Of a stretch of DNA of 42,105 bases, positions 1,906 through 28,206 are shown piece by piece. This DNA comes from Rotaria sp. Lineage: Eukaryota. How positions within the stretch are numbered: position 1 is the first letter of the stretch; each line of letters begins with the position of its first letter. Made by a program: the position numbers and the translations under genes. The notes below the pieces were generated by a model. That model ran no database searches. It had not been told where the DNA came from and was given only the letters and a program-made list of their open reading frames with translations. The DNA lies in NCBI GenBank assembly GCA_905330235.1, contig CAJNUA010000634.1:1-42105 (forward strand), in the 5' to 3' direction.

Positions 1906-3299
1906 GGATCTGCTTTTTCCCCCTTGCATCGCCTAGTCTACCCAGTACGAAGAAACGTGTACACTGTAGAATGATAGAGTATACTATAAATAGTTCTATT
2001 AATTACGTAAGAATTTGACGACTTCAAATAGAATTCTGTCGAAAGTTGTCATATATTCAATCTGACAGCTAGAAAATTTCGAATGCAACCAAAATTCAAT
2101 CGAATCATGGTGAATTTATATCGACAGACCAAATATGTTGTGAATCTCTTCTTATCATATTCGCTCACTCCCATTACTCTATGCAGTTGATTGAAAATTA
2201 TCAAATTGTTTTCAATGAAAATCAGTACTGAAGAGCCAGCATTCTAGTGAAAGGTAGTAATTGTAGTAAATTTCAGATATCACTGTTGTAGGTGAACATT
2301 ATGCTGACACTATGATATCTCTAAACCCAGCAAACAGATCAACCATATACTATAGTTAATACGACGCGTAGACGAAAATAAACAATCTAAAGAACATGAG
2401 AACAGAATATCTGAGTAGAAAATACTAAGAGAATTCTTGCACGTTTCGTTTCATTGTACTTTCAAAAGAAAGACATAAAAAGTAGTGTTAAGAATACTTC
2501 ATATTCATTCAAATTGGCTATTTTCTAACTTCGTTGAAAAGAAATTAGAACGTTCATCGTTCAACGACAAGAGGCAACAAACTGATTTCTTGGTTGCTAA
2601 TGATTTCTGTCAGCAGAAATCAGTTTTATGTAATCGCTGCAAATCAACAGAAGTCATTGAAGAAGCTCAGAAGTCAAGGAGAATTAGAAGAAATAATTAA
2701 AAAATAAAAGGAGCCACTAACGATATTAGAGATCAATAGAAATTAGAGCACTTAACTTTAAACTTAGTACTATTGATTTTAAATGATTTCTAATATTTTC
2801 TGATAGAGTTTTCTGTAAAGCTCAATAAAATCCAGTTATTTTCTCATATTTAATGTTTTATAATGATTTCTAGCAATTGAAGTCGGTTTGTTTCTCCTTC
2901 CTTAACGATACAAAATAAATATTCAATGCGTATGCACGAGCGGAATTTTCTCTAATTTAATAGATGAGATTGAAAATTCTAAAATATTCCACAAGTGAAA
3001 TTATAAAACTTAATTTTACTTTCATATAACGAAAAGCTGTTGATGAATTGCAATCGCTTATTTGAGATGATTTGTTAGTGATTCACAACGATTTAAAGTA
3101 ATTTATCTGAGTTAAAATGAGTTAAGATGAATTAATTTTGATTTTCAGCTGATCTAAATCAGTTGTTTCCCCCTTGGTTCATATGCATAGTAGACTTCTT
3201 CAAATACTTTTCGAAACCCTTTCCGAAAGGGTAGATGAAAATACAATATCCGATTATCGCATTTCGAAAGGATATTTGAAAGGATTTATGGTTATCTTC

Positions 3300-3390: not shown

Positions 3391-6273
3391 TCTAATAGCA
3401 GCATTAATCTCATCGAAGAATTGGTGAAAGACTGAGTGATATACTGTGATACAAAAAAAGTTCTATATTTCATACATACATTCGCCTACTTTAGTCTAAA
3501 ATATCGTCAAACATATGGCACAAATTGTTCATCAGACTGTTTTTGTCACTGCACAGCCGGTCGTTATCAATCCGTTCCATCAATTCACCGATAATTGGAG
3601 AGTAGGGCTTTGCAATTGTTGTGATGATTTCAAACAATGTGAGATAATTATTCTCTCAATTATTCATTATTCTATGTTTTGGTGTATTATTAGGTTGCTA
3701 CGCATATTGGTGTTGGCCTTGTTTTGTCTTATCGCTAGCAGGCAAGATTAATGAATCATGTGCATCGTGTTGGTGCGTTCCAAATGCACTTGCTGTATAT
3801 CGCATGAAAGTTCGGTCTACTCTGCGAATCCAAGTGAGTTACTCAAGACAAAAATAGAATAGAATTGAACGATTGTTTTCTATTCATCAGGGTGATTCCT
3901 ACAATGACTATTGTGTCGTTTGCTGTTGTCCATTCTGTGCCGGACTTCAGATGCGCAATGAACTGGCTCAGCGTGGTCTTGGTTAAAACGATCGAATATG
4001 CACTGAAACGATCGTTTTTACTTAAGAAAACAAACAGAATATCTATATCCCACACTAACAAGTAAAATCGCTGTTTATGTGATATCACTGCTGATATCAT
4101 CTGCAAACAGTACATAAATACAGATTTTGGCTTTTTAAGGAACAAAATATGTCAAAACAAAATGCAAAAGCAAAATGCTTTTTCTAGCAAGAGAATTTTT
4201 TTACTATTTGTTTCTAACTGATTGAATTTTGACTTGAAGCGTTTCTGCAGAGATGAACAATTCATATTGTATCAAATGCAAATATTGCATCGTATGTGAG
4301 ACAGTTGCGAATGGTGAGTAACGTGCCTATGTCACCCCGTGTAAAAACAAGAGTGTAAGCGTGAAGTGAGTGTGGCGTGGCTATGTGGTATGGATGTTGG
4401 TGTGGGCATAGGTCATCTCGTTGTTAACTCCCACATTCGAGTGTAATAATTCAACAATTAAAATTCATAGCAATGATGACAATACGTTTTACAAGGAAAT
4501 CCTTTCGCCTGTTACTTTGAAAATAATATAAAAATAAATGATCACATGCGACATTCTCTATTCTATAACATGTTTATCTAAAAATTCAATACCTTTGAAG
4601 TTCTAAATTTCTAACAATTGTCTCGAAACTTATGCAAAGTGTAGAAATTCACTAGCAAAATCAATCATTTTTTCGCGTTTAAAGTTCTGTAGGTAAAAAC
4701 CAATCATACTAAGAGAATTAGCTTGTCAAGCTCTACAAACTGGTATATATTCCATTCAAAACTGAGACTGACACTTCCGTATGTTTCCTCGTAATTAGAA
4801 AGGTTATTTCTTCAATCGAACTGCTGTTTTGCCTAAAACTATACTAAAAATATTGCTTGGATCATGTACTCGACTCAAAATACATTTCTATCAAAACCAT
4901 TAGCTAATTTCAATCTTGCGAAGAGGCCTAGAGTGGACTCTTCTTTATTATGATGTTAACATACGACGATGTGATGATCTTTTTACTTTAGTTGAAGGAA
5001 ATAATGTAGAAAAGTGGACTAGTAGTTTCTGAAATCTATGATTGTTTATGAAACGTTTTCTCCGAATTTAACAGAATTTTATTAGTTTCTATTTTAACAT
5101 AATAGAAAAACAATTGAGTTTGTAACAAGCTTAACCCGAGATTGAATGAAAATGTCAATGAATTTCACTTCAGTATTTTTGTATTCGACCTTTCTCTTAA
5201 AATCGATTCGGTTATGCAATACGTCGAATATGAATGCCATTTCACTTTGCATTCCGCATCTTTATCGATAACCTTCATGCTGTGAAAATGAACAATGTTA
5301 CATAATTTTCAATGAAATTCGTATTCAATCATAAATCAGATGTCTTCTTTGATTCATATTCATTTTGAATTCAATGTTGTAGAATATAGTTTGGCTTTAA
5401 TTTTGGCACATTTTCAAGCGTGAGTTTTTACCTTTTCATATGAAGCTCTTATTACAGACGATAACAACCAGGATTAAATTATTGATATATGTCACAACTT
5501 TATTTGGCATGTAATTCGATGCTTATAATAATCAACATGTTAATTGAGCAAAAAAAATAATTACGAAAATGAAACATACTGGGAGAATAGCAACAATGAA
5601 AGTGAAAAATAAGAGGACTGTTCCAGGAAAAAACAATAAAAAAATTCTTGATTTTATACTTTTTGGGTGTAGATACAAGAGACTAAATGACACACGCAGC
5701 CAGACTCACCCTTTACATCATATTATTAGAAATAACAAGAAAGAGATCCTCAAAGCAGTGATACTAGTGACAAGTCAAAGTGAAATTCATTAAAGTTAGC
5801 TACGCCAAGCTTAAAAATAGAATTCAATTAAAGTTTCAACTGTTCTCGGAATAAACGAGATATAGGTGATGGGAAATAGGCACTGCTAAAGTATTCGCCT
5901 TTATAAAACCTCTTTTTGAATGAAGAAAATAAGTAAACTATATAAAAATATAAACAAAAGAAAAGTCGGTGTTCAAAAAATATTTGTTAGTTCCAAATTT
6001 TATTTCGTACAATAATTTCAATTGAATATCGAATCTTTGATTCTAATTTCATTCGCACTAATGAAATTTGTCTGCATTGGCTAGCATATATATTGTCTAC
6101 TTTAGTAATCAACCATTTTGTGGCAGTACAATTTCTCAATCAATCGCATCTTGACAGAAAATCTATCACGCCATTTTCATCTCAAATTCTAGATCATTAT
6201 TTTACCATGAAAAAAAAATGAATACTTGCTCAAAAGCCTCGAAACTGTTTTGTATATTAAACAAAAGTGTTCA

Positions 6274-6365
6274 GGGTGTGGGACGTGGGGGTGAGTGTGT
6301 GTATGTTTTTGTGTCAGTCATCAGTCTACCCGCATCCCACATTCGCAGCACACGTACAGCCACAC
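6274..6365. repeat. GT-arm / AC-arm foldback element (family copy, diverged)
   Basis: gggtgtgggacgtgggggtgagtgtgtgtatg … cccgcatcccacattcgcagcacacgtacagccacac. Confidence 0.4.
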
Positions 6366-6850: not shown

Positions 6851-7801
6851 CTAATATTTACAATTGAAATATCGCAAGTGTTGTACGCGATTCAATAATT
6901 CAAAATCTGCGTATATTATAAAACAATTATTAACATGAAAATATATCAGTAGAAGAGAAAATTCCATCGATATTTTTGATTGATTTGGATTACAACGGTA
7001 TGTTACAGTATTTATAATGCCGCAAAGTGATTGTTGTTGACATGATGCATAACATGATGTACAATCTTTGTTCGTATTAGCTATATAATTTCGACATCCA
7101 TTCATGTTACAACACCGACATTGACAACGTGTATTTACATTACTTTGACTTATACATGTACCATTAGTTTGACCCAGATAAAATGAAGATGGACAGAGTG
7201 AAGGATATTTCTTGTGACATGATTCTGTACAAGCCGATGACGAACATGAAAATGCTGTTGTGAAACCCACATCGATATTTGGTGAGCAGTTTGAACCCGA
7301 TTGACAGCCCATGCATGAACAAGTGTTACGGGTTAAAGAACGAATACTTGCTATACTGCTTCTCATTGTTGATGTTGCTGTAATAGGACCAGTACACGTA
7401 TCATTTGTTTGTCCATTTTGATTTCATACACATCGATTCGGATATTGTGCAGCACATGAAATACTACAGGAACCTGGTTGACATAAATAAGCAGCACTAT
7501 AACCAACAAAAGCGGGAGTACAGGCAGTTGAACCTGTATTGCAACAATCACAACGACAATTGCACAAAAAGTTAGGAGACGATGAACATTGTGCTGAAAA
7601 ATGACCGCTTCGATTATTTATTTGACATTGAGAATATCAAATGAAACAGTGTCGAGGACATGTCCTTGTATCACATGATTGCAGGATAACATTACCAAGG
7701 ACTACTGGACTGCAAAAACGACCAATACAACAAGAACATAAACAAGCATTTTGTTGAGCTTGAGAATATCTTATTAACAAGAATATAATCAGTATATACA
7801 T
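6851..7801 (-). CDS. Candidate secreted cysteine-rich protein gene: one 317-codon frame from ATG 7799-7801 to stop 6851-6853, interrupted only by TGA at 7637-7639 and 7424-7426
   Basis: N-terminus MYILIIFLLIRYSQAQQ is signal-peptide-like. It is followed by Cys-rich text (…CLCSCCIGRFC…CNCRCDCC…CSCMGCQSGSNC…CQCRCCNMNGC…). AATAAA lies ~25 nt downstream of the stop. Each TGA sits in a possible 54-nt GT…AG phase-0 intron (7594-7647 and 7378-7431). Confidence 0.35.
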
Positions 7802-9056
7802 TATTGTTACTCTTTACTAGTACATACAGTATCTAATATATAACTATTTTGCACAAGCGAATAATATAACAACAGATGAGATTAAGATATTTGCTTGGCA
7901 GACGGTAGAGGAACTAACAAGAAAAAAAAGTGATCTCTGTTAGCGTACTTCAATTTTTTATTTTTGTAATCCTCCGTTCTATTATTTTTCACGTCTTAGA
8001 TACCAGCGTCCAAAACAATGATGCGATGAGCAGCGAGAGAAAAGAATTCAAGAATGTTAACAGAACAAAGTAACATAGATACGAATAGAATGCACTATGA
8101 CGTATGAAATGTGTGTCTATAGTATAGTTCTCCATCGACAAAAATATGTGTCCACACACATTCCAAATGACGAGAAAAAAACACGAAAGAAAAAAAAGAC
8201 AACGAAGAAAGAAATTATCGAGTAAAATGCAAAACAAAATCAAGTTCGTGAACAAGAATGAATGTATAAATTAGAATTTGTGGGACCGTATAGAGGATTC
8301 ATGAGAAATAGACCGAGTCAAAGAAGAAAGAGCGGATAATGATCGAAATGTCTCGGGGAATTGATAATTGGATTGCATCGAGTCGAGACATTGTAGTAGA
8401 TTCATAAAAGAATTCGCTATGGGATGGATTTGTGCTGAGTCTGATAATTCAAGTGCTGTAAGAGTAGGTGTTTGACGACGACGGAATTAAAGTTGGATAC
8501 GATGACATAAATAAATGGTGATGGGAATTAATATGAAAAATATGATAGTAAAAGAAATGGTAGTACCAAAAGAAATTCTACTAAATCAATCAGTGCCATT
8601 AAGATGAGCAGCATAGAATTGTTCCAATATATGAATACAGTTATAAACTTTCGAATTCAGAACCCGTTTGACTCGATCTCCATGGATGTTCAGACCGTAA
8701 AATAAAAGACAGTATAAAATGGCTAATATAAACGAATGCATTAGTTAATAATTAGAAACAAATTGTAGAATAAAAGAAAGTATAAGAATTGTGTGTGATG
8801 CGTGAGAAGAATACTAGAAATGAAGTGGGAAATAAGAATGATACATGAGTATATGAAATGAAAATCAAATTACTCAGAAATATTTAGGACGCAATGTGAA
8901 ATACGTAACAAGCTGTTGAAAATCAGCATAGAATCAGTCGACTATTGTAGCGAGTTATACTGCAAACAAGGGAATGAGAGAGTTCACAGTGACTTTACGA
9001 ATGACAGCACTTAACTTGACATATTGAACAATATATGTTTTATCAACCAAACTAGA

Positions 9057-9118
9057 GTGTGGGTGTGAGTGTTGGTCTTGTCTTCTCTTTGTGCACACCC
9101 ACACCCAAATCCACATCC
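9057..9118. repeat. GT-arm / AC-arm foldback element (family copy), in the MVP intron region
   Basis: gtgtgggtgtgagtgttgg – 18-nt loop – cacacccacacccaaatccacatcc. Confidence 0.55.
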
Positions 9119-9368: not shown

Positions 9369-9453
9369 CTAAAGGCATTCAAAAACTACAAAACAATTCC
9401 CATAATTCGTAAAAGTAAATTGATTGGATATAGCTGAACATGTGGCTGTTTAC

Positions 9454-9553
9454 CTGATCCATTAGATAACCCTTCATCTCTAGCTTGTCGCTGTTTTCCA
9501 TTATCATCAAAATCTAAAAGAGCTTCCAATTTTAATACTGAATTAGTCGGAAT
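9454..9553 (-). CDS. MVP: Candidate MVP exon 2 (IPTNSVLKLEALLDFDDNGKQRQARDEGLSNGSG), followed by donor GTAAAC
   Basis: The minus-strand translation aligns with MVP '…[34 protein letters not shown]'. Acceptor …gtag|ATTCCG, donor G|GTAAAC. Boundaries are approximate. Confidence 0.4.
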
Positions 9554-9626
9554 CTACTTAACAAAGTGACAGACTAAAATAATGCAGACAGTTACTAGGA
9601 AAAATTAACTTTCATAAGGAAATTCA

Positions 9627-9980
9627 AAGCGCTTCTCTTAAAGTTTCACCAGGATATAATGGAAATGGTTCTTTATAATCTTTATTCAATCGGATTTCTA
9701 TATCACCATGTAACAATTTTACTTGGCCATTTTCATCCAATTGAACTTGACCAATGTCGTTTTTCACAACGGGATTTTCGACAACACAATAGTGTCTCGG
9801 TGGTAAGATGATCATTTTTTCTGGCCCTAGAGTAATTGTCTCATTGTCTTGTTTAAAAAATGTTTTCGGACCAATTTCCAACCGTGTTACCCCTGTATTT
9901 TGATCTAATACGTGAATATAATAAAACGATAGGATGTGATAGACGGGGCCGGTTTGAGATGGTAAACTTTCCGAAGACAT
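9627..9980 (-). CDS. MVP: Major vault protein (MVP), N-terminal coding exon (start ATG at 9978-9980; ORF-track start at 10013 is a TTG)
   Basis: The translation MSSESLPSQTGPVYHILSFYYIHVLDQNTGVTRLEIGPKTFFKQDNETITLGPEKMIILPPRHYCVVENPVVKNDIGQVQLDENGQVKLLHGDIEIRLNKDYKEPFPLYPGETLREAL matches the vertebrate MVP N-terminus (…YHYIHVLDQN…VGPKTY…DNE…PPRHYC…NP…G…LEIRL…PFPLYPGE.L…). The 3' boundary is unresolved because TGA follows REAL and there is no GT donor. Confidence 0.75.
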
Positions 9981-10523
9981 ATTAATGCCAAATTTTCGTT
10001 CTAGAATAAACAAACAAAAGAAAAGAAAATCGGATGTAACTGTCAGGGAAACTCGTTTTTTCAGAAGGATGACTTGTTTCTTTCAACTATGCTCGTCAAC
10101 ACATTGCACAACTGTTATGAAACAACTCTGCTGAATCAAAACAGTCATGCACGTAATTGCAAGAGCTTTTGTAATATTCTATTCTGTGCTGTCGCCATAC
10201 GTCATAGAATACGATAGAAAAGAATTTTTCTTTTTCTTGTCGACGTAAAACAGAGATTGTTTTGAAAGTGAATAAGTCGAAATACATGCTGCTACTTTCT
10301 GTTAGATTGAATGGTCACACTGTTTTGCCTCTTGAGCCGTTTCATACACCTCGTTCGTACTGCCAAAGACCTTCTCATACTATAACTACAAGACAAAATA
10401 TTGGTTCTAAGGAAATTAGAAATATTTGACAATGTGTGAAACTCGAATGTCACTACATCTATTTGTCTTTGCCCTTTATTGCAAAGAATTGAAATACAAA
10501 ATCCGTCTTATTCCTTCTCTATA

Positions 10524-11219: not shown

Positions 11220-11296
11220 GTGTGAGTGTGGGTGCGGACATAAAAAGAGAAAGATAACAGCCACAACCACACGCAACATCCCACCCACATCCACTC
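11220..11296. repeat. GT-arm / AC-arm foldback element (family copy)
   Basis: gtgtgagtgtgggtgcgg … ccacaaccacacgcaacatcccacccacatccactc. Confidence 0.55.
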
Positions 11297-16383: not shown

Positions 16384-16746
16384 ATGGATGCACGAACATC
16401 GGAATCCAGTAACGACAATGTCGTTCCATGCGGAGTCGATTGGAGCGATCGTGCTCATCCTTCATCTTACTGCTGGTTTCCTCTTACATCCAATGATTCA
16501 TCGACTGCTCCGTCATGTGCATACGGTTCATGTGCAAAGTGGAAGCAAACAGGTCAATCAGCACTTCTACAATGTCAATCATGTAATTTGATAATGTATG
16601 CACATCATTTGACTAATTCATCAACGTCAAATAATGATTCTATTCAATCGTGTCGTCCATCATTTGTCGATAATACAGAACAAGGAAACTCGCTGACGAA
16701 TAACAAAGATAGTCCATTGAAATTCGATCAACATTTTTGGTCTCAT
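16384..16746 (+). CDS. Diacylglycerol kinase, N-terminal region with a degenerate C1-like Cys/His cluster (tentative exon; possible donor CAT|GTATCA at 16747)
   Basis: Cys/His-rich segment HPSSYCWF…CAYGSC…LLQCQSCNLIMYAHH lies upstream of, and on the same strand as, the kinase catalytic exon. The C1 pattern is incomplete. Confidence 0.35.
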
Positions 16747-16804
16747 GTATCAACACTTCCAAAGCCATGAATGCATGCATTGCCAACCAACATCTATGGT
16801 CAGT

Positions 16805-16990
16805 GGTGGTCCGACTGGGGGGTGGAGGAGGTGGTGTCGGGGGTGTAACACCCACCCCTCCAATCGTCGAAATTGCCGTTTTTTTTCAAGCAAAATCCAA
16901 AGATTTTCTTGTGTTCTGTTTGAAAAAATAATAGTACATACCCCAAATATTCTCAACACTTCACTTCCCCTCCTCCCCCTCCCAATGTTG
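16805..16990. repeat. G-rich / C-rich inverted pair inside the putative DGK intron. A local hairpin (16808-16856) has a long-range C-rich partner at 16962-16982.
   Basis: ggggggtggaggaggtggtgtcgggggtgtaacacccacccctcc, then ~100 nt later cacttcccctcctccccctccc (reverse complement gggagggggaggagggg). Confidence 0.5.
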
Positions 16991-17428
16991 GTTGATTCGG
17001 GTCACCCCGGTCTATGGTATCTTTCTTAGATATTATCGATCAGATGAAATCGATGATCAGTTATATATCAGGAACTTTGGATGACGATCTGTCAGACGCT
17101 TCACATGGTCTCGTTTGCTTATGATGTTTCCGATGTTATCATAATTCGTGTTGGGAACAACTTACTCCTCAAGATAAGCTTCAATATGACTATGGTATCT
17201 TTCAGTAAGTTTCTCACGATATTTCTTCTAATTAAGTCGAGATAAATCAGTGTTCGTTGATGATTTGCTTTAAGATTTTCAAAAAAATTCCTTTAGTTCA
17301 GCGAGATAAATCATTCTAATTTTTGAGTTCATCTAGATGTTATCCACAATAATTTGATTGAACTGTCTTTGCCAATTGACATTAACATTTTGATTTTCAT
17401 CAACAGAAATATTATTGTTTGGCCACAG

Positions 17429-17911
17429 TGGTTCAGTCGTTCAAGTGAATCTTCAACTGATTTCAAAGCACGAGCATTTTCGTATTCAACCAACAATAAT
17501 GCTGAGTCAAACTCATTTCCATATACGCCTGTTCTTGTTTTTGTAAATAAACGCTCTGGTGGTCAAGTTGGTGAGAACATATATCCAGAACTCTTACAAA
17601 GACTCAATCCGCGTCAAGTATTTCTTCTAGAAAACAATGTCACAATTACTTATGCTCTGGATATCTACTCTTCGTTACTGAACATGCGTATTTGCATGTT
17701 CAGCGGTGATGGTACTGTTGATTGGATTTTTAGCTGCCTAGCCGAGGCCTATCCATCTAGACATAATCTTCCAGTAAGCATTTGTCCGTTGGGAACATGC
17801 AATGATCTTTAACGTGTCTTGGCTTGGGGTGAACAATACGATCCGAAATGTCTTTTTCGTACACTTCTACAGACTTCACAAGCTTAAGTTGCTGTACTTG
17901 ATCGTTGGGAA
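17429..17911 (+). CDS. Diacylglycerol kinase catalytic domain exon (DAGKc), containing two in-frame TAA codons at 17810-17812 and 17885-17887
   Basis: Motifs PVLVFVNKRSGGQVGE, LNPRQVF, FSGDGTVDW, ICPLGTCNDL[TAA]RVLAWG and LDRWEVQ match the DGK motifs PLLVFVNPKSGxxQG, LNPxQVF, GGDGTVGW, LPLGTGNDLARxLGWG and DRWKVQ. Acceptor …ccacag|TGG at 17429; candidate donor GAA|GTTCAG at 17912. Confidence 0.7.
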
Positions 17912-18002
17912 GTTCAGCTTGAAGAATTCGATGCAGAAAAATTAGCTTTGATAACACAACAACATCATGAAAGTGGTTTCAATATCAGCCGAAATATTTC
18001 AG

Positions 18003-18827
18003 CCATTACTCAACCCTCCTAAATTCATTCAAGAAACCAATCGATCTTCGTATGAAAACTATCAGAAATTGCCGAACATACGCTTTATTAACTACATGAG
18101 CTTTGACTTAGATGCTGCTATTGCACTCGATTTTCATGTTGAACGTACACGTGATCCATCGAAATTTTCGTTACCATTGAAAAATAAATTCATGTATGTG
18201 AACGAAAGTTGCAAATATTTCGATGATTTTGCTCGGACACAAATGTGAAATTTAGGCTCTCATATTTGTTTGATATGCGATGATCAAGATATCCCTGATA
18301 CAGTACTTAATTGTCACACATTGGTCATACTCAATATTCCAGGCTATGCATCTGGTACAAATCCATGGAGAAAATCATTGAGAAATTCAATAATGGATCG
18401 TGTCAATCAATTATCGACTCTTGAATTAAGCAGTACTTTTATCAACCAAATATCCATGAGGTCACTTGATCCATTGAATTGTGCAGGTGATACCCAAGAA
18501 AACAACGAATTAGAAAGTTTGGACGATAGGGATACGGATCAACCAGAGAGATTATCGACAACACAAACAACTTCAAGTAGTCGTTTTCAACCACAAAATT
18601 TTGGCGATCGAAAAGTTGAAGTTGTCGGATTGAGTACTACACATATGGCTGCAATCCATGCTGGTTTTCGTGGCAATCGAATCGCTCAATGCAACCGATT
18701 GTGTATTGAACTTCGTTGTCCAATGACAGCACAAATGGATGGTGAACCATTCTATCTTCCTACACCGGTAGCTGTCAATATTAGTCATGTTGATCAAGTA
18801 CTTGTGTTAAAAAATGAGAACAAATAA
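18003..18827 (+). CDS. Diacylglycerol kinase accessory domain and C-terminus (DAGKa), with an in-frame TGA at about 18246-18248; ends VLKNENK-TAA right after the kinase core, as in type III / epsilon
   Basis: NYMSFDLDAAIALDFHVERTRDPSKFSLPLKNKFMYV matches [23 protein letters not shown]…NK.VY. LVILNIPGYASGTNPW matches IIVLNIGYWGGG. RCPMTAQMDGEPFYLPTPVAVNISH matches [21 protein letters not shown]. Candidate 91-nt intron 17912-18002 ends (tttcag|CC). Confidence 0.7.
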
Positions 18828-22035: not shown

Positions 22036-22080
22036 GGGTGTGGGTTGTTCTTCGTCAATCACCCACATCCACACCCACAC
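22036..22080. repeat. GT-arm / AC-arm foldback element (family copy)
   Basis: gggtgtgggttgtt–cttcgtcaat–cacccacatccacacccacac. Confidence 0.6.
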
Positions 22081-22797: not shown

Positions 22798-22869
22798 TGG
22801 GTGTGGGTGTGGGGTTTGGATGAGTTTAAATCTTCACCTCAACGACATCCGTATCCACACCCACATCCC
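22798..22869. repeat. GT-arm / AC-arm foldback element (family copy)
   Basis: gggtgtgggtgtggggtttgg … acatccgtatccacacccacatccc. Confidence 0.6.
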
Positions 22870-24106: not shown

Positions 24107-24178
24107 TAGCAGCGAGTAGTTTCGATCTACCGCCCTCTGAGTTATGAGCCCAGCACGCTTCCACTGCGCCACGCTGCT
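24107..24178 (-). tRNA. tRNA-iMet: Initiator tRNA-Met (anticodon CAT)
   Basis: Minus-strand sequence AGCAGCGTGGCGCAGTGGAAGCGTGCTGGGCTCATAACTCAGAGGGCGGTAGATCGAAACTACTCGCTGCTA is near-identical to vertebrate tRNAi-Met. It has A1:U72, the GATCGAAAC T-loop with A54/A60, CAT in the anticodon loop, a 7-bp acceptor stem and an A discriminator. Confidence 0.85.
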
Positions 24179-24189
24179 TGTATTTCTAT

Positions 24190-24241
24190 GGGTGTGGGTA
24201 TGGGTGTGGTTTTCTCTTTGTACACATCCACACGCATACAT
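24190..24241. repeat. GT-arm / AC-arm foldback element, 12 nt upstream of the 5' end of initiator tRNA-Met
   Basis: gggtgtgggtatgggtgtgg–ttttctctttgta–cacatccacacgcatacat. Confidence 0.6.
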
Positions 24242-24509
24242 TTCTGTTGCAAACCTCCATTTTTTGTGCCGATTAGAAAAGAAACTTCTCCTTAAACTAT
24301 AGCATACATATACAACGATGGCTGTACAAAAGTATCAACGTCAAATTTACTCTTAGGTCTACCTGTTCGCACGAATTCATTTTGTTAATAGCTCTCTGTA
24401 TGGATGTAGCACATTGAATGAAATAATTAGTTGTTTCATTCAGTGACTTTTGTAATGTATTGCGCGAGACCAGAAGATATGTGAAACGGTACAAGTAAAA
24501 AAGGAAAAG

Positions 24510-24581
24510 TAGCAGCAAGTAGCTTTGATCTACCCCAATCTGAGTTATGAGTTCAGCACGTTTCCACTGCCTCACGCTGCT
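24510..24581 (-). tRNA. Degenerate second copy of initiator tRNA-Met (possible tRNA pseudogene), 400 bp from the first
   Basis: AGCAGCGTGAGGCAGTGGAAACGTGCTGAACTCATAACTCAGATTGGGGTAGATCAAAGCTACTTGCTGCTA. It has the same architecture but carries an A:C mismatch in the anticodon stem, D-arm changes, a T-loop ATCAAAG and a G:U at the acceptor end. Confidence 0.5.
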
Positions 24582-24910
24582 TCTGTTCAACTTTCAGGTA
24601 AAAAAATCGTCATGATGCCAGCCTTTTTTTCAAAATTATTGCATTCATATAAATATCTTATCTAATCAAAACTATTCTGGAAATCTCTTACTTTTTTCTG
24701 TCTTTATATGTGAAGTCAATAATCTAGTATAAGATTGCATGTTTATTAGAAAAAAAATATGTGTTCATTTCCAATATTTAGTTTAATTAATCTCTTTTTT
24801 TAAATATCTATCTATAGTATTGGCTTTAATGAAGCAAAGAGAGGCATGATTAAATAAATTTTAGAGTACTGAACCAAACTAAGCTATAATCACAAAAGGT
24901 TGTAAGAGAT

Positions 24911-24950
24911 GAGTTGATCTGGGGTGGGTGTCGGTGGTGACTTTTTCTAC
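24911..24950. repeat. GT-arm / AC-arm foldback element (short copy)
   Basis: ggggtgggtgtcggtggtg–actttttctac–actcacaccc. Confidence 0.45.
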
Positions 24951-25070
24951 ACTCACACCCTTGGAGTCGTTTACGGTAGTTGTTGTCTTATGCAGATAGT
25001 GATGACCATCAAGTGACGCCTACATTACATTCGTTTTTTAAAGAAGAAAAGTTCGTAACAAACTGCATAG

Positions 25071-26490
25071 TTATCGATCAAAATAAGTGAGAAAAAACAA
25101 AATGGCCCAAATAAATCCAAAAAGAGTTCCTTCTGCTTGAAACATGGACGAGTTGATTACACTAGTTTCGAAACATTGAAAGAGTGTCACCTGAATATCT
25201 ACGATTGTACGATAAAGTTCTTTCGACGAATCTAGCGGTAAAAATGTATCTCCATTAGAGAGCAAAATCACGCTGATAGTGTTTTTCTCATTGACCAGCA
25301 TCAAATGAGTCATGCCTTGTAATCCACCACCATGTCAGACATATCGATGACCATTGCTCAACGTTTGCCAATGCCAACCAAGTCCAAACTTTAGTGATTC
25401 ACATAGTCCTGTAGAAGTATTGCTTGAATCTTCAATATAGTAAGGGATGAGACCACCGCCAACTATTGTTCGCATTTCGGCAATGGATCGAGGAGTAAGT
25501 AACGAAGATTCATTATTGATAAACATACGAAGAAATACAGATAGAGAACGAGATGGCATGCGAAAGAGGCCTGAAGGATAAGTATTGAGGCTGAAGAATG
25601 GAATTTACAGCCCTGTTGGAAGATTTCCCTAGACAGATGATTAATTATTAAATCAAATCAATGCTACGTAGTAAAACTATTGACGCGCTTACAGGAATCT
25701 GTGTGATATTCAGTTATGGCATTATTTGGTTCCATGCTTGAAGAAAGGATTCATTGAATGCATTCGTATAATGCTTAACAAAATCGTTTCTGTCTTCAAA
25801 ATCGGAGAGACGAAAATCTGTCTTGTGAATATCGATGCCCAACGGTTTCAGAATATTTTCTTTGACATGTTGATCACAAGGCGTTTTTGTTATTCGTTCG
25901 ACGACTAATGCAGCCAGAGATGAACCTTCATTTGAATAGAATGTTACACTGCCTGGTGGTTTTGGCAACCAATTCGACGTATCCGGATTCAGATATTGGA
26001 AACACATATCGGCCAAACTCGCTTGAGTGAATGCAATATCATCCGGTTGAAAGTAAGTGTCCAACGAATAGTTATTGACAGCGACTGAAGCTGAGTGTGA
26101 AAGTAATTTACGCAGAGTGATCGAATGAGAAGGTTACTGCGGATGAAAGATTCTTTAGTGAGGTTCCGACAAATATTGGTTGGTGTCTGTGTTGAGATCA
26201 ACAAGTTCTTTCTCGACAAGTTGCATGACAGCAACTCCAATAAATGTCTTTGAGATAGAGGCGAGAATAAAAATCGACTTATCGACATCCATAGACACTG
26301 CTGGTGAAAGAGACTGGTAACCAAAAGCTTGTTCGTAGAGTATATCACTAGCATTGACTACAATAATTACGGCACCTGGAATATGAACTTTATTGAAAGC
26401 CTTCTCGATAAATTGTCGATTTGGACAACTTGAACCATTGGTGGCAGCAATAATAAAACTAAGAACATGCAGACGCAACAATAAACACAT
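25071..26490 (-). pseudogene. LACTB / class-C beta-lactamase-fold serine hydrolase homolog, interrupted by 3 in-frame TAA and 1 TGA and one frame change (candidate pseudogene, or recoded)
   Basis: Ordered motifs on the minus strand: FILASISKTF (S-x-x-K), …YLSEPH[TAA]RIFHPQ[TAA]PSHSITLRKLLSHSAS…, YSNEG (Y-x-N), KFGLGWHWQ…GHRYV[TGA]HGGGLQG (H-x-G box), …VNEKNTISVILLSNGD. Stops at 26155-57, 26134-36, 25714-16 (TAA) and 25335-37 (TGA). Confidence 0.55.
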
Positions 26491-26790: not shown

Positions 26791-26973
26791 AGGTGTGGGT
26801 GTCGACGTCGGTGTGATTGTGGGTCTTCTTTTAAGCCACATTCACACCTATACCCTTTGATTAAACAATGTGGGTGTGAATGTGGATGTGGGTACGGGTG
26901 TGGGATGGGGCGTGTGGGTGTGGGTGCATGTGGGTGTTGTTTAAGCGGTTATCAACACCCACACCCATACCCT
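26791..26973. repeat. Two adjacent GT-arm / AC-arm foldback elements; the second has an expanded ~70-nt GGGTGT-type arm with many GGG runs
   Basis: ggtgtgggtgtcgacgtcggtgtgattgtgggtc…gccacattcacacctataccc. Then tgtgggtgtgaatgtggatgtgggtacgggtgtgggatggggcgtgtgggtgtgggtgcatgtgggtgttg … caacacccacacccataccc. Confidence 0.6.
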
Positions 26974-28140
26974 TTTGAACCGGAGATTTGACACAACTTG
27001 TAGTATTTTTTTGAAAAAGTTTTTCTTTTATTGAGGGAGGAGGCGGATTGTGGATAGTGAGAGAATGACTTATTGAGCGTTATAGTGATGACAATTGCGA
27101 TCTATTGGTGGTACATAAAATGGCGGCGGAGGCATTGAGGCTCTGAGGCCTCAGTCTCATCTGGTTTTCATCAATGAAAGCTCAGTCTCACCTAATATTA
27201 AACTTAATATTTCATACGAATACATACTTTTCAAGGCTTTTATGCACTTGTGGTAGGCCATCCTAAGCAGGAAGGTAACTCGGTCAATAGTATAGAACTA
27301 TCGCATTTCCTAGCGGATTTCATTCTGGAAATCAGGATGCAAACGACTGTTTTCAAACAAAATATTGTCCAGAACTACTTTAAAAAATTATTGATTCGTT
27401 AGTATTTAACAGCTGTATGAAATCAGTTTAGTTTCACCATCTCTGGACATTTTCTACAGAGTTCTTTAATATGATTATTGCAAGCGAGGTCATATTTGGC
27501 AGCAGAAATATCGAACAACTTTTTTGAGTTGAATACAAATATGGGCGTCTTCCTATAAAAATTCGGTACCTACACGAGGGTCTATCGATCTGGAAAACCT
27601 GTAGACTGAGGCTTTTTGAAAAGTTTCGTTTTTTGTAATCATGGAGCGTCTTTGTTTACGATAAACGTCGCCAGAGTGACCGTTAGTTATGGCAAGAGTA
27701 TTCAGTCATTTCCTTGGTGCCGTTTTCTTCCGATGAAGCTGTAAGTAATAGTAGAGTTTCTAGAAGTTTGAAAAAACAATTTGCTTCACGATAAAATTCT
27801 ATTCACTTTGCTACGATTTTCCGGATTTTTCTCAAACCCTGACTTCTTGCATTAAAATTGGTTGAATATAAGAAGACGTCTTGTGCATTTTAGACCGCAG
27901 AAAATTTACCTTGTTATGACCTACATCTTATTAAGATGTAGTCATAAGGAATGTCTATCTGTATCGACAGGTTTATATATCTGTTTTAATTACACTCAGT
28001 CATTGAAAACTCACAATTAGTATAATTCTATCACAATTAGTAATTAACCAGTCAAGATTAAAATCTTTAAAAAATTTCAAGTAACCGAAACCGAGATAAA
28101 AACCTAATAAGTTTTGTGTTCTTTATTTTGAACTAAGTTT

Positions 28141-28206
28141 TGTGTGGGTGGGGATGTCAATCTTCTAGTCCGCTCACGCCCACACCCACTCACTTTCACA
28201 CCCACT
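28141..28206. repeat. GT-arm / AC-arm foldback element (family copy)
   Basis: tgtgtgggtggggatg … ctcacgcccacacccactcactttcacacccac. Confidence 0.55.

Follow-up and report, generated by a model that had tools for sequence, protein, structure and literature searches.

A probable unprocessed pseudogene of a many-copy beta-lactamase-fold hydrolase family in the bdelloid rotifer Rotaria

Introduction

How should a gene be read that retains every catalytic box of its enzyme family and is interrupted, again and again, by stop codons in an otherwise unbroken frame? The question is raised by a beta-lactamase-fold gene in a 42,105-nt stretch of DNA from Rotaria sp. (contig CAJNUA010000634.1; the whole stretch is referred to here as the window). 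An earlier note on this DNA had described nonsense-only decay with conserved catalytic residues at this locus and at a second one, DGK, and had raised recoding, read-through of stop codons and a systematic base-calling artefact as explanations. The analysis reported here leads to a more ordinary answer: the locus is very probably an unprocessed and fairly young pseudogene of a many-copy bdelloid family of PF00144 (MEROPS S12-type) serine hydrolases. The argument is carried by the structure of the gene, by five premature stops and the codons from which they arose, by replacements at conserved positions, and by an apparent, mild relaxation of constraint relative to intact relatives.

All coordinates are forward-strand positions of the window, whereas the gene under study lies on the minus strand. 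The window is AT-rich, with a GC content of ~27-39% in 1-kb bins. Homologs were counted at E <= 1e-5 in a large protein database, in which the source species of the window has no entry, and source organisms were checked for the best 120 matches. DNA of relatives was available from Rotaria sp. Silwood2 (L002) and from metagenomic rotifer contigs (L003-L007), and also from L026 and L027.

Gene Structure and Catalytic Boxes

The gene model, built from the three minus-strand frame translations and the location of individual codons, is that of a two-exon PF00144 gene at 25071-26490 with a conceptual product of 451 residues. Exon 1 (25693-26490, minus strand; 266 codons, from the ATG at 26488-26490 to ...NITQIP) encodes a hydrophobic, signal-peptide-like N-terminus followed by the SISK and YSN boxes, and is covered by one tblastn high-scoring segment pair (HSP) with each of the relatives P0006 and P0040. 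Exon 2 (25071-25628, minus strand) has 185 codons ahead of its terminal TAA (25071-25073); it supplies the HGG box together with a C-terminal tail that is hydrophobic, and is likewise covered by one HSP (25625-25089). The exons are separated by a phase 0 intron of 64 nt (25629-25692, minus strand; GTAAGC...TCTAG, GT-AG). The same codon boundary is interrupted in L003, L007, and L002, by introns of 60, 51, and 59 nt, respectively, and two metagenome gene calls, P0039 and P0040, end at this position. The window copy thus keeps the parental exon-intron structure and is not a retrocopy.

The match of the conceptual product to Pfam PF00144 (Beta-lactamase) is strong (E 1.5e-38; 133.2 bits against a cut-off of 27) and extends from residue 27 to residue 400, on positions 4-318 of the 329 in the profile. 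All three catalytic boxes are intact and align with those of the family: the SxxK box is S78-I-S-K81 (26248-26259, minus strand), the YxN box is Y185-S-N187 (25930-25938, minus strand), with Y185 and N187 invariant in the family alignment, and the HxG box is H365-G-G367 (25326-25334, minus strand), which lies directly downstream of a premature TGA. The identification of a beta-lactamase-fold hydrolase homolog, the retention of its boxes, and the GTAAGC donor immediately after ...NITQIP, all proposed in the earlier note, are therefore confirmed.

Equally well founded was the claim that the reading frame is broken by stop codons only. No frameshift was found in tblastn comparisons with five relatives, which gave a single uninterrupted HSP for each exon, and a 37-sequence family alignment contains no indel specific to the window copy. 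Outside the gene, ~30 nt upstream of the ATG can still be aligned with L003, and no DNA similarity was detected beyond the gene and its ~30-nt flanks in comparisons of the window with L003-L006, L002, and L007. At the position of the window gene's ATG, L003, which is otherwise intact, has GTG (Val; 3001-3003).

Premature Stop Codons

Besides its natural terminator, the window copy contains five premature stops, four TAA and one TGA. An earlier count of three TAA and one TGA was correct as far as it went, each of the four lying at its verified coordinates; a fifth stop, the TAA at 25605-25607, had been missed. The first TAA in the direction of translation, codon 112 (SEPH*RIF; 26155-26157, minus strand), corresponds to CAA (Q), AAA (K), or TAT (Y) in relatives, and the change that produced it is ambiguous. 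At codon 119 (HPQ*PSH; 26134-26136, minus strand), the TAA replaces TAT (Y), which is found in three of the three relatives with DNA, by a T>A transversion, and almost every member of the family has Y at this position. The TAA at codon 259 (IMP*LNIT; 25714-25716, minus strand) stands in place of CAA or CAG (Q) and arose by C>T. Codon 274 (PTGL*IPFF; 25605-25607, minus strand) is CAC (H) or TAC (Y) in relatives, and close to this TAA a conserved Trp has been lost as well (W272G, TGG>GGG). Finally, the TGA at codon 364 (RYV*HGG; 25335-25337, minus strand), which indeed precedes the HGG box by a single residue as had been noticed, corresponds to GGA or GGT in relatives, derives from a G>T transversion, and replaces a Gly present in every aligned full-length relative.

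According to the codon alignments, the stop-creating changes are thus T>A, C>T, C>A, and G>T together with one ambiguous case, a mix of transitions and transversions, and at least four of the five stops can be reached in one step from codons of intact relatives. Substitutions of all classes are found among the 54 that are unique to the window copy (T>C 13, A>G 11, G>A 8, T>A 5, C>T 3, and others). There is no uninterrupted frame that carries all three boxes, the stop at codon 112 falling between SxxK and YxN. Since this first stop truncates the product before both YxN and HxG, no active enzyme would be possible, and the copy is predicted to be without function and probably without expression.

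Family and Closest Relatives

The window copy is neither annotated nor represented in the protein database, where it has 207 homologs. Among the best 120 of these, every named one comes from Adineta or Rotaria, both bdelloid rotifers, and the unnamed ones are fragments from metagenomes or read archives, some of them truncated with gene calls that end at the intron. Adineta vaga has at least seven paralogs among the matches. Amino-acid identity is 58-62% to full-length relatives and 76% to a partial protein of Rotaria sp. Silwood2 (P0004), and nucleotide identity between the window gene and L003-L007 is 79%. An allele or ortholog of more than 80% identity was found neither in the protein database, where the best match is the partial one at 76%, nor in a metagenome scan, where the best reached 72%; for anything in the window, the best protein-database match is 73-76%. 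The bdelloid PF00144 paralogs (of A. vaga, A. ricciae, A. steineri, and Rotaria spp.; for example, A. vaga I4U23_027438) resemble the window copy in length (~430-465 aa), in the position of the intron, in the SxxK, YxN, and HxG boxes, and in their hydrophobic N- and C-termini. The window copy differs from them in its five premature stops and in additional radical replacements at conserved columns.

The closest relatives in Rotaria sp. Silwood2 are themselves defective as gene models, being 5'-truncated or chimeric and without SxxK. In L002 (contig CAJNWK010004162.1, 1-1300), homology begins at about residue 93, past SxxK, despite 125 nt of contig upstream, and P0034 is a chimeric gene model that consists of an unrelated N-terminus and a translated intron. 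Such defective relatives fit birth-and-death turnover in the family.

The family represents a rotifer expansion of generic S12, or class-C-fold, serine hydrolases. The best matches of the family profile among PDB sequences, with E-values from 2.9e-24 to 1e-13, are Staphylococcus aureus Flp (4gdn), the Pbp-related beta-lactamase of Pyrococcus abyssi (2qmi), alkaline D-peptidase (4y7p), the Streptomyces R61 DD-peptidase (1cef), and EstB (1ci8). With these bacterial and archaeal PBP-like hydrolases of S12, the rotifer family has the arrangement SxxK / YxN / (H/K)xG in common, and good alignment is limited to the N-terminal two-thirds. No specific enzymatic subfamily could be assigned, the best NCBIfam equivalog scoring 46 bits against cut-offs of at least 266, and a pattern scan of bacterial and archaeal genomes for a close relative gave a single match of 21% identity.

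The label LACTB, under which the locus had been described, does not hold beyond the level of the superfamily. LACTB, the mitochondrial serine beta-lactamase-like protein (7ulw, 7v1y), shares with the rotifer family the PF00144 superfamily, the fold, and the serine-hydrolase SxxK, but Flp, the Pbp-related protein, alkaline D-peptidase, and the R61 DD-peptidase all rank ahead of it. In the search with the family profile, it came 11th among PDB sequences (E 1e-8) and aligned over residues 28-142 only, and in a search with the single sequence it was not found among the PDB matches at E <= 1e-5; orthology with LACTB is accordingly not supported. The family also seems to differ from LACTB in its termini, the N-terminus resembling a signal peptide, the C-terminal tail being hydrophobic, and no mitochondrial presequence being recognizable. 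The N-terminus of the window copy, MCLLLRLHVLSFIIAATNG, looks like a secretory signal, and the hydrophobic N- and C-termini suggest that proteins of this family may be secreted or membrane-anchored.

Selective Constraint and Extent of Decay

The amount of decay beyond the stops was gauged from the conserved columns of the family and from branch-specific rates. Conservation reaches at least 90% in 102 columns of the beta-lactamase-fold family alignment, and of these the window copy is altered in 11, including W272G, Y208H, S291P, P370Q, and the change of Gly to a stop. Most full-length relatives are altered in 0-5, and only one chimeric model and one very divergent member exceed the window copy. 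The ratio of nonsynonymous to synonymous divergence (dN/dS), obtained from Nei-Gojobori distances with three-point estimates of branches, is ~0.29-0.38 on the terminal branch of the window copy, compared with 0.15-0.19, 0.21-0.27, and 0.25-0.31 for three intact relatives, and dS to the nearest relatives is 0.44-0.58. Constraint on the window copy thus appears to be mildly relaxed.

These values are best accommodated by a history in which prolonged constraint gave way to a neutral phase of ~3-4.5% divergence, or ~45-60 substitutions, a figure that is an estimate from the computed numbers and not a fitted model. Along most of its terminal branch, purifying selection would have acted on the window copy; constraint would then have been lost, the likely cause being redundancy among its many paralogs. 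In the neutral phase that followed, at ~3-4.5% nucleotide divergence, five nonsense substitutions would have arisen in it independently, along with several radical replacements of conserved residues. The dN/dS is raised and yet not near 1, which a short neutral phase would lead one to expect. Between 4.2 and 5.6% of random substitutions in the window gene create stops, so that a divergence of 3-4.5% predicts two to three of them; the five observed are compatible with this prediction, the joint fit with the excess of altered conserved columns giving a chi-square of ~1.8 (P ~0.18). At otherwise conserved residues, the copy-specific replacement is ~13%, and the chance that all six motif residues survive is ~0.87^6 = 0.43. 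At such a level of decay, the kept catalytic boxes are therefore uninformative.

In several respects the window copy behaves as unprocessed pseudogenes of birth-and-death families do: it has kept its intron, carries disabling mutations, appears to be under mildly relaxed constraint, has many intact paralogs, and lies in gene-poor surroundings rich in relics and repeats. It departs from the typical case in that all five lesions are nonsense and none is a frameshift, which places it at the low-probability end of what a low indel/substitution ratio allows.

A number of observations weigh against the interpretation as a pseudogene. The dN/dS of the window copy exceeds the values of intact relatives by a modest margin only, and L003, with an open frame, has a similar value; rates alone would not prove relaxed constraint. 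The absence of any indel from 1353 coding nt and the intron is also somewhat unexpected. With a frameshifting indel/substitution ratio of 0.05-0.1, three to six such indels would be expected over ~59 neutral substitutions, and finding none would have a probability of ~0.05-0.003; over the wider range of ratios from 0.03 to 0.1, this probability falls from ~0.17 to 0.003. An alignment of the intron with that of L003, judged by eye, has ~2 indels per 12 substitutions, and indels apparently do occur in this lineage. To these points may be added that the stop bases are read from the assembly sequence alone. Zero indels at this locus is a mild oddity, not a finding.

The DGK Locus

The second locus for which nonsense-only decay had been claimed provides a useful comparison, and there the claim fails. 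Mapped with the 665-aa homolog P0155, the DGK locus (16384-18827, plus strand) proves to be a heavily disrupted pseudogene with three insertions in addition to four point stops. An insertion of 4 nt at 16768-16771 (plus strand; LPKP[TGAA]CMHCQ) accounts for the TGA that had been listed as a stop and that belongs to the frameshift. A 1-nt insertion at ~17989-17991 (plus strand) lies in an A run between NISR and IFQPLL. The largest insertion, of 218 nt (16801-17018, with flank from 16793; plus strand), has an 8-bp direct duplication, TCTATGGT, on both sides, and both copies of the duplication encode S-M-V of the homolog's TSMVSTLDIIDQ. This insertion has G-rich and C-rich terminal stretches and contains the motif ACACCCAC, and looks like a miniature inverted-repeat transposable element (MITE) or a transposon with its target-site duplication. 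The point stops, all on the plus strand, are TGA at 17122 (Trp in the homolog), TAA at 17810 (Ser), TAA at 17885 (Gln), and TGA at 18246 (Trp). Damage extends to the zinc-finger Cys and the GTGNDL motif, and the terminal TAA coincides with the C-terminus of the homolog.

Alternative Explanations

If the window gene were functional, its stops could be errors of assembly or base calling, with frameshifts possibly corrected by protein guidance and substitutions left in place. The lack of any frameshift or indel beside five stops speaks for this explanation, which is nevertheless very unlikely. At least four substitution classes (T>A, C>T, C>A, and G>T) are represented among the stop-creating changes, so that the systematic base-calling artefact of one type suggested earlier is not supported, and radical missense changes (W272G, Y208H, S291P, and P370Q) occur at conserved columns as well. 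That frameshifts were not scrubbed from the assembly is evident from the 1-nt and 4-nt frameshifts still held by the DGK locus nearby. Moreover, a sacsin-like (NO VEIN-like) gene ~5 kb from the pseudogene comprises four open reading frames (ORFs), 2191 codons in total, each of which is uninterrupted.

Still less probable is decoding or read-through of TAA and TGA, whether by reassignment, context-dependent read-through, or RNA editing, that would allow a full-length enzyme to be made. The intact catalytic boxes and the preserved frame had made this idea attractive, but the boxes have a chance of ~0.43 of surviving in any case. The residues aligned with the stops are inconsistent: TAA aligns with Q/K/Y, with Y, with Q, and with H/Y, and TGA with an invariant Gly at this locus and with Trp at DGK, so that no single decoding restores the consensus. 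Both codons also act as normal terminators within the window, TGA in a gene for a small heat-shock protein (sHSP) and TAA at DGK, exactly at the conserved C-terminus, and the ORFs of the sHSP gene, like those of the sacsin-like gene, are uninterrupted. On these grounds codon reassignment is rejected, and recoding or read-through more generally, as the earlier note had considered it, is not supported.

The other argument for recoding was that the stops are never TAG. The observation itself stands, there being no TAG among the nine point stops at the two loci, but it is not significant. Random substitution is expected to give TAA in 42-48%, TGA in 24-27%, and TAG in 28-31% of new stops, and the probability of no TAG among the five stops of the window copy alone is 0.15-0.20. 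Pooling these five with the four point stops of DGK, nine in all, lowers it to ~0.04-0.07 in a comparison that was chosen after seeing the data.

Least probable of all is inactivation of the window copy and its neighbors by repeat-induced point mutation (RIP) or deaminase-type, APOBEC-like hypermutation. Such a process would give stops without indels and would suit both the substitution-only decay of this locus and a nearby decayed tRNA-Met copy, whose 73 nt contain 11 mismatches and no gap. The mutation spectrum nevertheless leads to its rejection: transversions make up three or more of the five stop-creating changes, and the 54 copy-specific substitutions show no dominance of C>T or G>A. It also conflicts with a terminal-branch dN/dS well below 1 and with the indels at DGK.

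With the interpretation as an unprocessed pseudogene preferred over these alternatives, the consequences are chiefly for annotation: the locus is best flagged as a bdelloid PF00144 pseudogene, and as neither a functional hydrolase nor a LACTB orthologue. A tempting false lead is also removed, there being no evidence within the window for recoding of stops, read-through, or systematic base-calling error. Beyond annotation the locus is of little importance, and the general point that remains is the ratio of frameshift to nonsense lesions in bdelloids genome-wide.

Small Indels in Bdelloid Pseudogenes

With regard to that ratio, base substitution might account for nearly all decay of bdelloid pseudogenes and small indels might be unusually infrequent, perhaps as a consequence of the unusual way in which bdelloids repair their DNA, although on present data this seems rather improbable. 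Pointing in this direction are the five stops and zero indels of the beta-lactamase-fold locus and the 11 mismatches and zero gaps, over 73 nt, of the decayed tRNA-Met copy. When both loci are pooled, nine nonsense lesions stand against two small frameshifts, which fits a frameshifting indel/substitution ratio of up to ~0.04, and the data are also compatible with an ordinary, mammal-like ratio of ~0.03-0.05. A literature search for data on bdelloid pseudogenes or indel rates yielded nothing usable. If true, a low frameshift/nonsense ratio across the genome would bear on the mutation spectrum of the DNA-repair-proficient, asexual bdelloids, a matter that a single locus cannot establish.

Separately, one rotifer locus is represented by metagenomic contigs from different samples (L003, L005, and L006), which differ by 2-11 single bases and by no indel over 4.5-6.8 kb. 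These haplotypes slightly suggest that in bdelloids small indels are infrequent when compared with substitutions.

Genomic Neighborhood

The region around the pseudogene is rich in gene relics, which include the disrupted DGK locus, a truncated MVP gene, and a decayed tRNA-Met copy. The MVP relic (9389-10082, minus strand) covers the N-terminal ~170 residues, with a Vault_2 match at 9624-10013 (E 4.9e-24); its second piece (9389-9553) is visibly decayed, and no further MVP sequence follows. A full-length MVP has ~850 residues, and what had been listed as an MVP exon, among genes free of in-frame stops, is a truncated gene relic and no intact gene. An intact tRNA-Met gene (CAT anticodon; 24107-24178, minus strand; 57 bits with Rfam) has its decayed duplicate ~400 nt away at 24498-24587, which is recognized by neither ARAGORN nor Rfam. 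The best match of the sacsin-like ORF is a Rotaria sordida protein of 73% identity, and neither a beta-lactamase-like nor an sHSP sequence was found in the 23-kb R. sordida locus (L001) in which the best sacsin-like homolog lies.

Short hairpin-like elements of GT-rich/AC-rich sequence are dispersed through the window, at approximately 4401-4436, 6277-6342, 8111, 9058-9110, 11227-11290, 22039-22080, 22802-22866, 24187-24245, 24920-24962, 26794-26860, 26869-26975, and 28143-28205, and two or three copies flank the beta-lactamase-fold pseudogene. Each consists of a 5' arm of degenerate TGTGGG/GTGGGT repeats, a spacer of 10-60 nt, and a complementary CCCACA/ACCCAC arm. Strict matches to this arrangement number seven, against 0.08 expected from Markov simulations, and no element in the opposite arm order was found in the window. 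TGTGGG is the bdelloid telomeric repeat (PMC7943196). Candidate identities for the elements are a MITE, remnants left by the capture of telomere repeats, and a hairpin with a regulatory role.

Cys-rich ORFs on the minus strand, at 6851-7366 and 7427-7813 (171 aa, with neighboring fragments), have no Pfam match and may represent a lineage-specific gene for a secreted Cys-rich protein.

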